From a virus, in the IMG/VR virus record IMGVR_UViG_3300020183_000010: DNA of 64,000 nucleotides; one strand, written 5' to 3'. The notes under the pieces are model-generated. The model was not told the origin of the DNA. It was given only the letters and a program-made list of their open reading frames with translations, and ran no database searches. Shown one piece after another: positions 44,338-48,505 of the stretch (position 1 is the first letter of the stretch; each line of letters opens with the position of its first letter). The position numbers and the translations under genes were made by a program.

Positions 44338-44826
44338 TTATTCGGGAAGATAAGAAGTCCAGACATCCATACCCTTAGAAAAATTTCTAATAAAGTATCC
44401 GTATCCAGGTTTAAATGGCTTATGCCTCATTTTCATTCCTGCCTCTTCTGGTGTTCTATCACCTTTTTTACTGTTACATTTTGAGCAACATGTAGCAAGA
44501 TTTTCCCATATATTTATACCTCCTCTTGATTTAGGTCTAACGTGATCTATAGTAAGTTGCTTCGTAGAATCGCAGTATAAGCACTTTAATTCGTCTCTCT
44601 TAAATATGTTCTCTCTTGTGGGTTTTAGCTTCTTAAAAGGCAAAACAACGTACTTCAAAAGTCTTATTACCGAAGGTCTTTTATAAACATTTTGATCCGT
44701 AATAATTGGATTATCCTCGTCATGTTCTAGAATTTCCGCTTTCCCTTTGTATACAAGTTTGAATCCCCGAGCAAAGTTAGTAACGCTTACTGGCGTGAAG
44801 TCGTTATTTAATACTAGCACTTTCAT
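44338..44826 (-). CDS. HNH endonuclease
   Basis: VLVLN, RENIFKRD, CLYC, TIDHVRPKSRGG, WENL..CC..CN..KG. Confidence 0.9.
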   Translation of the reverse strand: MKVLVLNNDFTPVSVTNFARGFKLVYKGKAEILEHDEDNPIITDQNVYKRPSVIRLLKYVVLPFKKLKPTRENIFKRDELKCLYCDSTKQLTIDHVRPKSRGGINIWENLATCCSKCNSKKGDRTPEEAGMKMRHKPFKPGYGYFIRNFSKGMDVWTSYLPE

Positions 44827-44878
44827 AACACTACATTTTTACATACTGGTTTATTTATTTATCATTTTTTTAAAAAAA

Positions 44879-45609
44879 TTAAAGCTTATCTTCTTCGACG
44901 ATAGAATACCAAAAGTTATGCTGTCCGGATTTTTTTACCATCGACCAGAATTCGTTCCATTTCTCTTCTGTTGGTATTACTTGACATCCTGCGGAATATC
45001 CACCAACGCAAGGTATATCTTTAGATCCCTTTACTCCTTTAGGTGGTAATCCGTAATGGAAATTAGTTGCTGTTCCTAAATCTTTCTTTGGAGGATCATA
45101 GGTGGTTATATCACCATCACTCTTGGAAAATCTATTAACTCTTATCTCCTTAGCAGATAATCCAGGAATATCCGGTACTAAAGCAGGAATAGTTTTATTT
45201 ATAGACTTAAAAGAGTGCGTTCCTATTTTAAATTTATACTCTCAGTCATCTAGTATTGCAACGTCATGATCGTACCAAGCTACAGAAGGAACTGTGGTAG
45301 ATTGAAAGGGAGTAATTTTAGGATTATCCTTTTTAGCATTTTTAGGTATAAAATAAATACTATCTAAATATTTTTCCGGATTTTTTTTCCTTATCGATAA
45401 TTTTCTTCTAATACCAATTATTACTGCTTCCCCCCCTTATCTATAGATTTTATAGTTTCCGCATACTTTCCCAAACTTTTTAGATATCCATAAAGATCTT
45501 TAAAGTCTAGTGATATCTGAGGAACCGGGGGAGTTTCTTTACAATATTTTTTTATATACTCCTCTTTGTTGCTCTCGTTTATAAATTCGTAGTATTTTAG
45601 GATACTCAT
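44879..45609 (-). pseudogene. interrupted L,D-transpeptidase-like (YkuD-type) gene with capsid-targeting-like N-terminus
   Basis: 62-aa 5' piece shifts frame at a G7 run (45430-45436); continuation has one in-frame TGA (45242-45244) and ends NFHYG...VGGYSAGCQV...EEDKL*. Confidence 0.65.
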
Positions 45610-45624
45610 AATCTATATATCAAG

Positions 45625-45696
45625 TTTTCCCCCAAGGATTCGAACATCAATTCTGTGGATCAAAACCACATATCCTGCCAATTAGACGAGGGGAAA
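45625..45696 (-). tRNA. tRNA-Gln(TTG), possibly degenerate
   Basis: TTTCCCC/GGGGAAA acceptor, TGTGG-TTTTGAT-CCACA anticodon arm, TTCGAAT loop; mismatch in T stem. Confidence 0.7.
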
Positions 45697-45706
45697 AAGA
45701 ACAAAT

Positions 45707-45737
45707 AAAAAAAGGCTTCGAATAATCGAAGCCTTTT
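45707..45737. terminator. intrinsic terminator
   Basis: aaaaggcttcga-ataa-tcgaagcctttt. Confidence 0.75.
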
Positions 45738-45770
45738 CCAAAATATCTAAAAATGATTTTTGATATTTTT

Positions 45771-46166
45771 TTAGTAATATGTTTCAATTACTTCAATCTT
45801 AGATGCGTTGCCTCCTTCTAATTCACCCTCTACTTCACTAAATTCGTAATCCACGTCAGTTGAATCATAGGCATTGTAAAAAAGTTCAGAATCTTTTTCA
45901 ACTTTACCTTCAATCAAAGAATTTACGATCTCGTCTAGATTTTCTGAATCAGTTATGTGATCTCTAAGGATCTCAATAGCATCTTCATATTTCTCTATCC
46001 CCTTTTCCCCCTCGTACCCGTCCATGATACTATAGAACATTCCAAGAGCAAATACTACTGCCTCTTTTTGTGTTTTTCCAGTACCTATTGCGGTAAACTT
46101 TACCTTAGCATCTGGGTTAGTGTGGTCTACGTTCATTGTAAACCTTTTTAAAATTGATTTCTCCAT
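45771..46166 (-). CDS. hypothetical acidic protein
   Basis: 131-aa ORF. Confidence 0.6.
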   Translation of the reverse strand: MEKSILKRFTMNVDHTNPDAKVKFTAIGTGKTQKEAVVFALGMFYSIMDGYEGEKGIEKYEDAIEILRDHITDSENLDEIVNSLIEGKVEKDSELFYNAYDSTDVDYEFSEVEGELEGGNASKIEVIETYY

Positions 46167-46244
46167 AATAAAAAAAATTAAAGTGTTTATATATTATACA
46201 CGAAAGTAGAGAAATATAACGGCCTTAAAAAAAGATTTTTCAAT

Positions 46245-46763
46245 TTAAGATAAAAATTTAACGATTTTATCCTTGATTCCTGACTGTTTTATGCCCTCTT
46301 TGTATGGTTTAGTGGTCATTACAAAGTTTTCCAACTTGGAAAGATCAAGATCATCTACAGCAACCCAATGGGTTACCTCTGGATGGTTTTTAAGCCATTC
46401 CTTAATTTCTGTAACACGGATAGCTTCATAAAATCCCTTCCATTTAAAAAGTGCAAAACCATCCTCATCGAAATCTTTCATGTTTGGCGTGAGATCTATT
46501 GGAGGGTTAATTCCACGAGTGGTGTACATCTTCTGCATTTGTTCTAGATTTCCCCAGTTTTTCCAATCCGAAGAAACCACTATCTCACATCCAGTTAAAT
46601 CGATAATTTCTTTTAAAACCTTAACAGCCTTAGAATCAAAGCTGTCCATACGGATATCTAGAGGGGTTTCTGGATTACTATCATACCCCTTCTTCTTGAA
46701 TCGTCCTCCCCATTGTGAAGAAAGGCAGATTACTCCATCATGATCTAAGAATATTACTTTCAT
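46245..46763 (-). CDS. HAD phosphatase, Swiss-army-knife RNA repair type
   Basis: FLDHDGV, IVVSSDW, R..EI..WL, VAVDDLD; directly downstream of tRNA cluster. Confidence 0.8.
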   Translation of the reverse strand: MKVIFLDHDGVICLSSQWGGRFKKKGYDSNPETPLDIRMDSFDSKAVKVLKEIIDLTGCEIVVSSDWKNWGNLEQMQKMYTTRGINPPIDLTPNMKDFDEDGFALFKWKGFYEAIRVTEIKEWLKNHPEVTHWVAVDDLDLSKLENFVMTTKPYKEGIKQSGIKDKIVKFLS

Positions 46764-46776
46764 CTATCTCTTGTTG

Positions 46777-46850
46777 TGGTCCCTCACGGGCTCGAACCGT
46801 GGACCTACTGATTATGAGTCAGTTGCTCTAACCTACTGAGCTAAGGGACC
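46777..46850 (-). tRNA. tRNA with CAT anticodon, Ile2-type body
   Basis: GGTCCCTTAGCTCAGTAGGTTAGAGCA-ACTGA-CTCATAA-TCAGT...GGTTCGAGCC...AGGGACCA. Confidence 0.88.
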
Positions 46851-46858
46851 TTTTGGTG

Positions 46859-46942
46859 TACCCAGAGAGGGACTCGAACCCTCACACCTCTCGTCACTAG
46901 ATCCTAAAAAATCTAGCGTGTCTACCATTTCACCACCTGGGC
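46859..46942 (-). tRNA. tRNA-Leu(TAG) with expanded 10-nt anticodon loop
   Basis: GCCCAGGTGGTGAAATGGTAGACAC, CTAGA-TTTTTTAGGA-TCTAG, long variable arm, GGTTCGAGTCC. Confidence 0.8.
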
Positions 46943-46946
46943 TTAG

Positions 46947-47019
46947 TAGCGGGAGCCAGATTCGAACTGGCGATCTCGGCTTATGAGACCGAGCGGATAA
47001 CCATCTTCCACATCCCGCA
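46947..47019 (-). tRNA. tRNA-Met(CAT), initiator-like
   Basis: TGCGGGA/TCCCGCT acceptor with 1:72 mismatch, TCGGT-CTCATAA-GCCGA, GTTCGAATC. Confidence 0.8.
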
Positions 47020-47026
47020 ATATCTG

Positions 47027-47100
47027 CGGTCCGTATGGGATTCGAACCCATGACCTCCGCCGTGACAGGGCGGCGTTGTGACCAACTCTACTAACGGACC
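47027..47100 (-). tRNA. tRNA-Asp(GTC)
   Basis: GGTCCGT/ACGGACC acceptor, CCGCC-CTGTCAC-GGCGG, GGTTCGAATCC. Confidence 0.92.
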
Positions 47101-47105
47101 AAAAA

Positions 47106-47215
47106 TAGGGATAAACACGGGCCTAGCAAGCCGTCTTTCAGGAAAGGCCCTTCTAACTGTTTATCCCCTGAACCTTCAAAACCCTGCCCAAACGGGATAG
47201 GGAAACCCAGTCCAA
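47106..47215 (-). ncRNA. unidentified GC-rich structured element inside the tRNA cluster
   Basis: Nested stems GGGATAAACA/TGTTTATCCC and GGGCCT/AGGCCC; no tRNA motifs. Confidence 0.4.
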
Positions 47216-47225
47216 TTTTTTTGCG

Positions 47226-47297
47226 TAGTCGGTACGGGATTCGAACCCGTGTGACAAGGATGAAAACCTTGTATCCTGACCCCTAGATTAACCGACC
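47226..47297 (-). tRNA. tRNA-Glu(TTC)
   Basis: GGTCGGT/ACCGACT acceptor, CAAGG-TTTTCAT-CCTTG, GGTTCGAATCC. Confidence 0.9.
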
Positions 47298-47301
47298 ATA
47301 A

Positions 47302-47313
47302 TTTCAAAGAACA
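47302..47313 (-). promoter_or_regulatory. boxA-like antitermination site before the tRNA cluster
   Basis: TGTTCTTTGAAA versus rrn boxA TGCTCTTTAACA; related copies at 48283-48294 and 54589-54600. Confidence 0.55.
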
Positions 47314-47321
47314 TATAAAAC

Positions 47322-47350
47322 AAAAAAACCTCTGAGGTTATCAGAGGTTT
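47322..47350 (-). terminator. attenuator terminator upstream of the tRNA cluster
   Basis: AAACCTCTGA-TAACC-TCAGAGGTTTTTTT. Confidence 0.75.
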
Positions 47351-47371
47351 AAATTATATCGTTATATTAAT

Positions 47372-47446
47372 TTAATTACTCTGACACTTTCCAATATCCT
47401 CAAGACGATCGAGTTGAACTTGTGAGATATTTAGAAATTGTTTCAT
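47372..47446 (-). CDS. putative 24-aa leader peptide MKQFLNISQVQLDRLEDIGKCQSN
   Basis: ATG...TAA between promoter and terminator; its 3' end GTCAGAG complements the terminator 5' arm. Confidence 0.5.
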   Translation of the reverse strand: MKQFLNISQVQLDRLEDIGKCQSN

Positions 47447-47467
47447 TGAAAGTTTTGTTTCTTTTTA

Positions 47468-47497
47468 TTATATACCTCAAAAGTACATAAAAGTTTC
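47468..47497 (-). promoter_or_regulatory. putative ECF-type promoter (GAAACT...TATA) for leader and tRNA cluster
   Basis: GAAACTTttatgtacttttgaggTATATAA; motif recurs upstream of other genes. Confidence 0.5.
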
Positions 47498-47525
47498 AGA
47501 TAAAAAAAATGATTTCTTGATTTTT

Positions 47526-47807
47526 TTATAAATTCCATGCTGGATTAGCAACTATTAGCATTCCATTCTCTACTCTTGGAATAGGCTTAGTTGAATAAAC
47601 ATCATCATATTGGATTTGATCCGGGTAGAATTTTTGACCTTGAAACATAATATAATTCTCTTCATCTTTACCCCTATGGCTCCACCCTTGTCCTCTTACA
47701 GAATCATGAGCTGCATCATCAACTGTTGGTCTACCAAAAAGAGCATCCCAGAATCCCTCGTTTACTTTTTCTGAAAATGATTCAAATTCGAATATATGTT
47801 TCATCAT
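47526..47807 (-). CDS. hypothetical protein with capsid-targeting-like N-terminus
   Basis: MKHIFEFESFSEKVNE. Confidence 0.65.
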   Translation of the reverse strand: MMKHIFEFESFSEKVNEGFWDALFGRPTVDDAAHDSVRGQGWSHRGKDEENYIMFQGQKFYPDQIQYDDVYSTKPIPRVENGMLIVANPAWNL

Positions 47808-48235
47808 TAATATTTATTTATATATCCATTATTAAATAAAAACTGATATATTGAATCTGCGTTTTCTTCTGCCCATGTTATAGCAATTTCTTCTATATCT
47901 ACACCTTTATAAGTTAAGTCTGTTCCGTGTATTTCTAATGACATGTGCATAGATTCGTGCATAATTAGTAATACATCTTTATATCCATTACCTAATCTTG
48001 TAGCATTTAAAAAAAGAAATAACTTGCTGTGATCTTCTGGGTATACGTTACATAAACCGGCTATATAGGCATTACCCGGATTATCATAGCAATCCTTTTT
48101 ATATAGACCGTGTAATTCTTCTACACCAAAGAAATTAAATATATCCTCAGATTTTTCCCCTACTATTAGTGTGTATTCTGGATACTGTTTAGTTAATATT
48201 GAATTATTAAAATCCTGTATACTCTTAATCTTCAT
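47807..48235 (-). CDS. HExxH metallopeptidase-like protein
   Basis: LIMHESMH...EE.A. Confidence 0.55.
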   Translation of the reverse strand: MKIKSIQDFNNSILTKQYPEYTLIVGEKSEDIFNFFGVEELHGLYKKDCYDNPGNAYIAGLCNVYPEDHSKLFLFLNATRLGNGYKDVLLIMHESMHMSLEIHGTDLTYKGVDIEEIAITWAEENADSIYQFLFNNGYINKY

Positions 48236-48295
48236 AATTTATATATCTAGAATCAAGTCTAGATCAATTAACCAACATTTCAAATCAAAGAACAT

Positions 48296-48328
48296 AAAAA
48301 ACCGGGACTTTTTAAAGGTCCCGGTTTT
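48296..48328 (-). terminator. attenuator-type terminator, second copy of the architecture
   Basis: AAAACCGGGAC-CTTTAAAAA-GTCCCGGTTTTTT followed by TGTTCTTTGA. Confidence 0.75.
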
Positions 48329-48505
48329 AATAATTATAGTTAAATCTAACACAGGACCTTTCAGGATCGTCTTATCGACGGTCTTAATATTGAAGGTAAT
48401 ATGTTAGTCGTTCCTTTTGTTTTGTTTCACAAATAAAATATAGGCTATCTTTATTGATAAAAAATGATTTAGAATCTTTTTTTATTTTTTTATTTTTTTC
48501 TACAA

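Follow-up and report, generated by a model that had tools for sequence, protein, structure and literature searches.

The tRNA Unit and Its Leader

The window analysed here is a stretch of 64,000 nucleotides from the IMG/VR virus record IMGVR_UViG_3300020183_000010, placed with a large uncultured Bacteroidota phage whose portal, terminase, and sheath are of the phage T4-like kind, the nearest portal records being those of uncultured huge phages and Prevotella Lak phages at 35–46% identity. On its minus strand lies a block of five tRNA genes (46776–47297) which comprises, in transcription order, tRNA-Glu(UUC) (47297–47225), tRNA-Asp(GUC) (47100–47026), tRNA-Met(CAU) (47019–46946), a Leu(UAG)-like tRNA whose anticodon loop is enlarged (46942–46858), and a second tRNA-Met(CAU) (46850–46776). 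A preliminary description of this DNA had proposed that a short leader upstream of the block, encoded entirely on the same strand, works as a ribosome-sensing attenuator, and we found the 24-codon ORF, the terminator hairpin followed by seven T, the boxA-like motif, and the five tRNA genes all in the places that it had given.

The promoter region of the element (47470–47511, minus strand) is situated in an A/T-rich stretch next to the upstream neighbour, a 93-aa gene that ends at 47526. What had been called a promoter-like motif holds as a conserved Bacteroidota-type −7 box, TACTTTTG at 47485–47478, present in all the relatives compared and accompanied by a T-rich, weak −33 element, but not as a sigma-70 promoter, given that a sigma-70 scan gave no match at the leader; a TATAAT reading was accordingly dropped in favour of the −7 box. 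TAnnTTTG is the −7 element of Bacteroidota promoters, and of 40 non-redundant leaders in the wider family described below, 21 have it 18–76 nt 5′ of their ATG, against 6% of shuffles. Transcription is predicted to start near 47471, which leaves an A-rich 5′ untranslated region of about 24 nt without a Shine-Dalgarno sequence, a signal generally missing in Bacteroidota.

The leader ORF (47446–47372, minus strand) starts with ATG, has 24 codons, and ends in a TAA located directly 3′ of the antiterminator 5′ strand, here called region 2; a 21-nt A/T-rich spacer then separates the stop codon from the hairpin, this spacing being 18–39 nt across the leader family. Codons 12–17 (47396–47413, minus strand) form the putative sensing block CTC GAT CGT CTT GAG GAT (LDRLED), in which the Leu(UAG), Asp, and Glu tRNAs of the cluster can read five of the six codons, and which occupies codons −9 to −4 relative to region 2. 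The best 7-codon block of the window leader contains five cognate codons (P = 0.027), with relatives reaching 7/7 (P = 0.0003), and the leader as a whole has 6 cognate codons out of 23 against 4.2 expected, which is non-significant (p = 0.24). The leader had been described as rich in Gln, Leu, Asp, Glu, and Ile, overlapping the tRNA set encoded downstream: Leu, Asp, and Glu, and also Met, are indeed served by the cluster, but Gln and Ile are not.

A hairpin within the ORF itself is predicted at 47437–47387 (−9.5 kcal/mol), overlapping at most 3 nt of region 2. One strand of this hairpin is the RNA of an N-terminal header, M-K-x-x-x-N-I or M-K-x-x-x-H-I/M, that is common to leaders of different tRNA blocks (window 47426–47446, minus strand; L082, L157, L299, L404, and others), and Lys is the second residue of 24 of the 42 leaders, the share among long ORFs being 29%. 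The header may act as a pause or loading signal.

The intrinsic terminator (47322–47350, minus strand) has the form AAACCUCUGA-UAACC-UCAGAGGUUU followed by a U7 run, with 10 pairs and a 5-nt loop in its hairpin (47350–47326) and a predicted energy of −12.5 kcal/mol. The competing antiterminator (47339–47386, minus strand) is built by UGUCAGAG (47386–47379) pairing with CUCUGAUA (47346–47339), a duplex of 8 bp counting a U-A pair and a G·U pair. It contains the complementarity already pointed out between GTCAGAG in the final ORF codons (47385–47379) and CTCTGAT in the terminator 5′ arm (47346–47340), which is present with 7–8 bp and is lengthened by an inner A/U helix of another 7–8 bp (47375–47364 with 47359–47349); in the window alone, this complementarity reaches p = 0.054 against 500 dinucleotide shuffles. 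Position 47378 is U in the window and G in the relatives, which makes the window antiterminator weaker, at a predicted −11.6 kcal/mol against −15.2 in the relatives, and by these predicted energies also slightly less stable than the window terminator.

When a transcript lacking the terminator 3′ arm is folded, the best predicted structure is the extended antiterminator. Folding with a ribosome at the stop codon masked gives the terminator, and folding with a ribosome whose A site is at codons 15–16 masked gives the antiterminator.

The preliminary description had also considered that the tRNA genes might have their own promoter behind the hairpin. The gap between the hairpin and tRNA-Glu is 28 nt and holds no promoter box, and in other members it shrinks to 7–12 nt. 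A promoter combining the TTTG of the T-run with that of boxA was rejected because their spacing is 7–8 nt and 19–21 is needed. As a separate observation, the T-run in the window (47314–47328, minus strand) is followed by G-TTTTATA (T7 G T4 ATA), and this string recurs behind the T-runs of many leader terminators unrelated to it; of 27 collected via a different pattern, 8 have it.

Several peculiarities of the tRNA block deserve mention. In the window, the Leu(UAG)-like tRNA carries a 3-nt TTT insertion and a C-to-T change in its anticodon loop (TTTTTTAGGA against CTTAGGA in five relatives), and ARAGORN assigns a 4-base anticodon to it (46858–46942). By its sequence, it is a candidate for either a pseudo-tRNA or a decoder with altered reading. 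A GC-rich spacer of 124 nt (47101–47224, minus strand) separates tRNA-Glu from tRNA-Asp; it did not fold better than its shuffles (z −1.0) and had no Rfam match. The relatives L081 and L082 have a different insert of about 100 nt, located between boxA and tRNA-Glu. An Rfam E-value scan of 44500–48500 returned tRNAs only, with no leader family and no T-box.

Directly 3′ of the block is a gene (46245–46763, minus strand) with the HAD domain of the “Swiss Army Knife” RNA-repair proteins (PF18143, E 9e-24), which is widely kept beside tRNA arrays in IMG/VR contigs (279 relatives). Some relatives also have tRNAs with stop-codon-reading anticodons, namely, UUA in L089 (7930–8001) and L092 (4036–4107) and CUA in L133 (tRNA after 4536).

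Conservation and Covariation in Related Phages

A DNA search of INPHARED with the region gave matches at the tRNA level only, which means that there is no cultured close relative; relatives were gathered by searching IMG/VR with the flanking proteins. The entire element is kept in about 10 distinct IMG/VR relatives, and the leader ORF is open in all of them despite in-frame indels of 12 and 3 nt and a diverged version in L089 and L154; counted over 74 elements with in-frame indels, the ORF is likewise open. The terminator sequence is identical in nine relatives, and in L089 and L154 it has changed in both arms together.

Covariation is three-way, linking the end of the ORF with both arms of the terminator, 5′ and 3′, among homologues and in unrelated members alike. 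The window-type trio reads GUCAGAGG / CCUCUGAU / CUCAGAGG, and that of L089 and L154 reads CCGAG.UUUU / AAAACCUCGG / ACCGAGG, with CCUCGGU/ACCGAGG as hairpin arms, while the unrelated L119 pairs GGCAGGG with CCCUGCC. Non-conservation of the complementarity had been named beforehand as a point that would speak against attenuation; in the window type, in L089/L154, and in L119 it is conserved and covarying.

The antiterminator was also recovered when 11 homologues were folded jointly with RNAalifold, where columns 99:117 and 100:116 of the inner helix are compensatory pairs. These pair counts undercount L089 and L154 because their 5′ arm is one column out of register in the MAFFT alignment, and the duplexes were folded sequence by sequence instead of from that alignment.

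A Family of Leaders That Mirror Their tRNA Blocks

A wider search combined pattern scans with a script requiring only a hairpin and T-run at most 160 nt upstream of a tRNA, and it yielded at least 42 non-redundant leaders in IMG/VR contigs. Among the matches listed, many unrelated members have wholly different hairpins, each with a matching segment at the ORF end, such as AUGGGCUA/UAGCCCAU and GUUUGGG/CCCAAAC. The statistics given here refer to a set of 42 non-redundant leaders picked irrespective of their codons. An Ile/Ser unit, L060, was excluded as a non-member, its stop codon being 61 nt from the hairpin and its duplex having p = 0.78.

In 32 of the 42 leaders, the ORF end has a significant complement (p ≤ 0.05) to the terminator 5′ arm, with a mean z of −2.9 and no significant complementarity in the remaining 10, and the 3′ end of region 2 lies at a median of 0.5 nt from the stop codon. 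Of 34 control terminators taken from other places in these contigs, only 2 have such a complement. These controls, together with the covariation across unrelated hairpins and the lack of a promoter box in the 28 nt before tRNA-Glu, leave only a negligible probability that the locus is an ordinary small gene with its own terminator, having a 7-nt complementarity by chance and tRNAs made by leaky read-through or from another promoter, even though the window-alone values for complementarity (p = 0.054) and codon match (p = 0.24) would fit such a gene.

The codon content of the leaders mirrors the tRNA genes downstream, strongly across the family and modestly in the window. From phage codon usage, 385 of the 1204 leader codons would be expected to be ones that the tRNAs of the cluster behind can read; the number observed is 537 (Z 10.6, 42 leaders), and when the leader-to-cluster pairing was permuted, 0 of 5000 permutations reached the observed match. 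Counted in codons from region 2, the stretch from −15 to −3 shows a 1.75-fold excess of cognate codons, with a family peak zone at −10 to −4 and a maximum of 2.4-fold at −5; from −2 onward the value is 0.95-fold. This is the profile expected if only a ribosome stalled clear of region 2 causes read-through. The comparative signal with the relatives is far beyond chance, and that of the window alone is borderline.

The match extends to the choice among synonymous codons. The relatives have three paralogous leaders (Ser, Glu, and Phe), one per tRNA block, each rich in the codons of its own tRNAs, and in four relatives the codon-versus-cluster tables for these leaders are concentrated on the diagonal, codon choice included. 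For Leu, TTA goes with Leu-UAA and CTN with Leu-UAG; for Arg, AGA goes with Arg-UCU and CGC with Arg-ACG; and for Ile, ATA goes with Ile-UAU and ATC/ATT with Ile-GAU. The Ser-leader of the relatives reads TTA CCT TCC ATA TTA AGA CCG TCG ATA AGA before Ser-UGA, Arg-UCU, Pro-UGG, Ile-UAU, Met, and Leu-UAA; the Glu-leader contains ...E D D L L E D... before Glu, Asp, Met, and Leu-UAG; and the 35 codons of the Phe-leader cover all 15 amino acids of its own block.

Distant phages have the same arrangement, as in a Q6 leader that precedes five tRNA-Gln genes and another, rich in L and R, that precedes Leu-Arg-Leu. In the published, unannotated 462-kb huge-phage genome LR756500.1, leaders of the same kind are found at 118.4–118.9 kb and at 65.6 kb (L569, L580), one with many H, I, W, E, and V residues in front of His-Glu-Val-Trp and another preceding an Ala-led block.

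The boxA Behind the Terminator

The boxA TGTTCTTTGAAA (47302–47313, minus strand) is placed 3′ of the terminator and directly before tRNA-Glu, and because of this position it is unable to act on that terminator. GYTCTTTGA follows 9 of 15 leaders that had been found without the motif in the search, and the extended motif GTTCTTTGAMRTAYTGG matches mainly Bacteroidota genomes; of 121 genome matches, 61 fall in the interval from tRNA-Ala to the 23S start. The tRNA-Ala/23S spacer is the classical position of the spacer boxA. In the window, boxA reads TGTTCTTTGAAATTATGG, which matches the GTTCTTTGA core and deviates from the extended pattern in its 3′ part. Most plausibly, judging from its sequence and place, boxA arms the read-through polymerases for the long untranslated tRNA array.

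Among 120 bacterial loci retrieved via boxA, mostly rRNA operons, there was no leader-type element. A few distant members (the L424/L056 Glu unit, L359, and L396) have a TAnnTTTG promoter-like box between boxA and the first tRNA, which could supply basal expression alongside the attenuator.

Remnants of Two Sister Leaders in the Window

Two further leaders of this kind are present in the window as relics, both on the minus strand. The Ser-leader relic (48285–48470), aligned with L082, L081, L003, and L089, retains the promoter region, the codons from AAC ATA on, region 2 (AAAGGTCC, 48361–48354), the hairpin (48328–48298), and boxA (48293–48285), and it has lost about 27 nt including the ATG; the Ser-Arg-Pro-Ile-Met-Leu tRNAs are gone as well, and a 142-aa gene comes next. 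By its sequence, it is a putative natural start-codon mutant of the leader, and according to our model it would read through untranslated, which would suit the protein genes now lying downstream.

The Phe-leader relic (45624–45739) consists only of the spacer, the terminator (45739–45708), and half a boxA (TTTGTTCTTT), fused directly to a tRNA-Gln gene (45696–45624) that is the last tRNA of a 15-tRNA block in the relatives; nothing of the short ORF or of region 2 survives, and 30 nt upstream there is now the end of a 131-aa ORF. The tRNA complement is 6 in the window against about 26 per phage in the relatives, and the window copy of the intact leader is the weakest member of the family by codon match (p = 0.24), by duplex (p = 0.054), and by its G-to-U change. 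Given the loss of the two other tRNA blocks and the insertion in the tRNA-Leu anticodon loop, the window unit may be decaying.

Proposed Mechanism and Alternative Explanations

We consider it probable, from the comparison of these sequences, that this phage tRNA transcription unit opens with a transcription attenuator of the leader-peptide type, operated by the translating ribosome, as the preliminary description had suggested from its classical geometry, a geometry that conservation, covariation, and the codon match now support. The Bacteroidota-type promoter would start the transcript, and a ribosome would load on the A-rich leader and translate the 24-codon ORF. The ORF end (UGUCAGAG plus the A/U helix) would be the first to pair with the terminator 5′ arm, thus blocking the terminator and giving read-through. 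A ribosome that reaches the stop codon smoothly would cover the ORF-end segment, so that the U7 terminator forms and transcription stops 25 nt before tRNA-Glu, and a ribosome delayed 4–10 codons earlier on the Leu, Asp, and Glu codons of LDRLED, or never loaded, would let the antiterminator persist. The polymerase that reads through would meet boxA, probably recruit host Nus factors for the untranslated array, and yield tRNA-Glu, Asp, Met, Leu, and Met, products that would in turn relieve the stall as a negative feedback on tRNA supply. Since there is no clear 1:2 protector hairpin to sequester region 2, an untranslated leader should read through, unlike that of trp.

All the rival explanations are less well supported than this classical attenuation. 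The best of them, which we regard as improbable, is a general sensor of translation capacity, reporting the ribosome that follows the polymerase (its availability or initiation) and not the decoding of specific codons. It would accommodate a window leader holding just 5–6 cognate codons, a region 2 without a clear protector hairpin, where any failure of translation should give read-through, and a header, M-K-x-x-x-N-I, common to leaders of different tRNA blocks. Such a sensor, however, needs neither a codon content that tracks its own tRNA set alone, as in the permutations (0 of 5000) and the diagonal tables, nor cognate codons that sit where a stalled ribosome frees region 2, and both properties are found.

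Still less probable is that the window copy is a decaying relic, an element of the attenuator family that no longer regulates in this phage and leaves the tRNAs to constant leakage. This is what one would read from the two broken sister leaders, the weakening G-to-U change in region 2, the TTT insertion in the tRNA-Leu anticodon loop, and a tRNA set shrunk from about 26 to 6, but the ORF, its start and stop, both helices, the T-run, and boxA are intact and near-identical to those of the relatives, and the antiterminator is still the best predicted fold until the 3′ arm is made.

Very unlikely, finally, is a translation-independent RNA switch with an incidental ORF, in which a protein, a small RNA, or uncharged tRNA in the manner of a T-box sets the helices. 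The covariation of the helices is independent of the mode of control, and the leader has no Shine-Dalgarno sequence, two features that such a switch would share; the latter, though, is generally missing in Bacteroidota, in-frame indels leave the ORF open in 74 elements, decoding is needed to explain both the match of codons to tRNAs and its footprint-like placement, and no T-box or other Rfam leader was matched.

Comparison with Known Attenuation Systems

The ribosome-mediated attenuator proposed here resembles those of the enterobacterial amino-acid operons (thr for Thr/Ile; ilvGMEDA for Ile/Leu/Val; trpL, hisL, pheL, leuL) in having a promoter-proximal short ORF and an intrinsic terminator, with the antiterminator 5′ strand under the ribosome at the leader stop and the regulatory codons a few codons upstream, and the multivalent thr and ilvGMEDA leaders are also alike in sensing several amino acids each. 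In contrast to the enterobacterial systems, the phage version would control tRNA genes instead of biosynthetic enzymes, so that the molecule sensed would be the product itself in a direct feedback; it lies in a Bacteroidota setting with a −7/−33 promoter and no Shine-Dalgarno sequence; its leaders are “checklists” of up to 15 amino acids; and it has no clear 1:2 protector hairpin and a boxA after the terminator.

The E. coli pheST attenuator is alike in that a leader peptide of cognate codons controls a translation component by the supply of charged tRNA-Phe, and it differs in being a bacterial synthetase operon with a single amino acid, the phage version being one of tRNA genes. The rrn-type boxA/Nus antitermination shares the boxA sequence of the Bacteroidota rRNA spacer, placed where a long untranslated RNA operon begins, whereas the phage boxA stands behind a regulated terminator in a tRNA unit, as a putative NusB/S10 site. 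T-box riboswitches also choose between terminator and antiterminator in response to tRNA status, but in them a specifier codon and the T-box sequence bind the uncharged tRNA directly, and they have no ORF and serve synthetases and transporters in Firmicutes; T-box features (Stem I specifier loop, T-box sequence) had no match in the Rfam scan of 44500–48500.

A full-text literature search turned up no paper that describes tRNA genes under leader-peptide attenuation, whether in phages or in bacteria, and we know of no attenuator-controlled tRNA operon in either. The mechanism is of a known kind, and its target, the tRNA genes, and its checklist leaders are new.

Conclusions

It has long been asked why phages carry tRNA genes and to what use they put them; to our knowledge the regulation of these genes has hardly been addressed, and attenuation is also little studied in Bacteroidota. 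According to the sequence comparisons, this phage probably makes the tRNAs of the block when ribosomes read the matching codons slowly, and an attenuator that senses the decoding of its own tRNAs' codons would be a direct feedback on tRNA supply. The design is widespread, with at least 42 non-redundant IMG/VR leaders besides those of the huge-phage genome LR756500.1; the leader would offer a compact, programmable codon-sensing part for Bacteroidota, and the window contributes natural deletion variants of the switch.

As a tentative extension, for which we claim possibility and not likelihood, Bacteroidota phages may run a codon-resolved “tRNA-stat”, in which the code is split among tRNA blocks, each induced by stalling on its own codons, so that only those tRNAs in short supply would be topped up, including when the shortage comes from anticodon-nuclease cutting or degradation of host tRNAs, the relics in the window then being natural mutants that show how the switch is rewired when a block is lost. 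Through the attenuator, phage tRNA arrays can be connected in a testable way with the demand for codons late in infection and with host defences that target tRNA.
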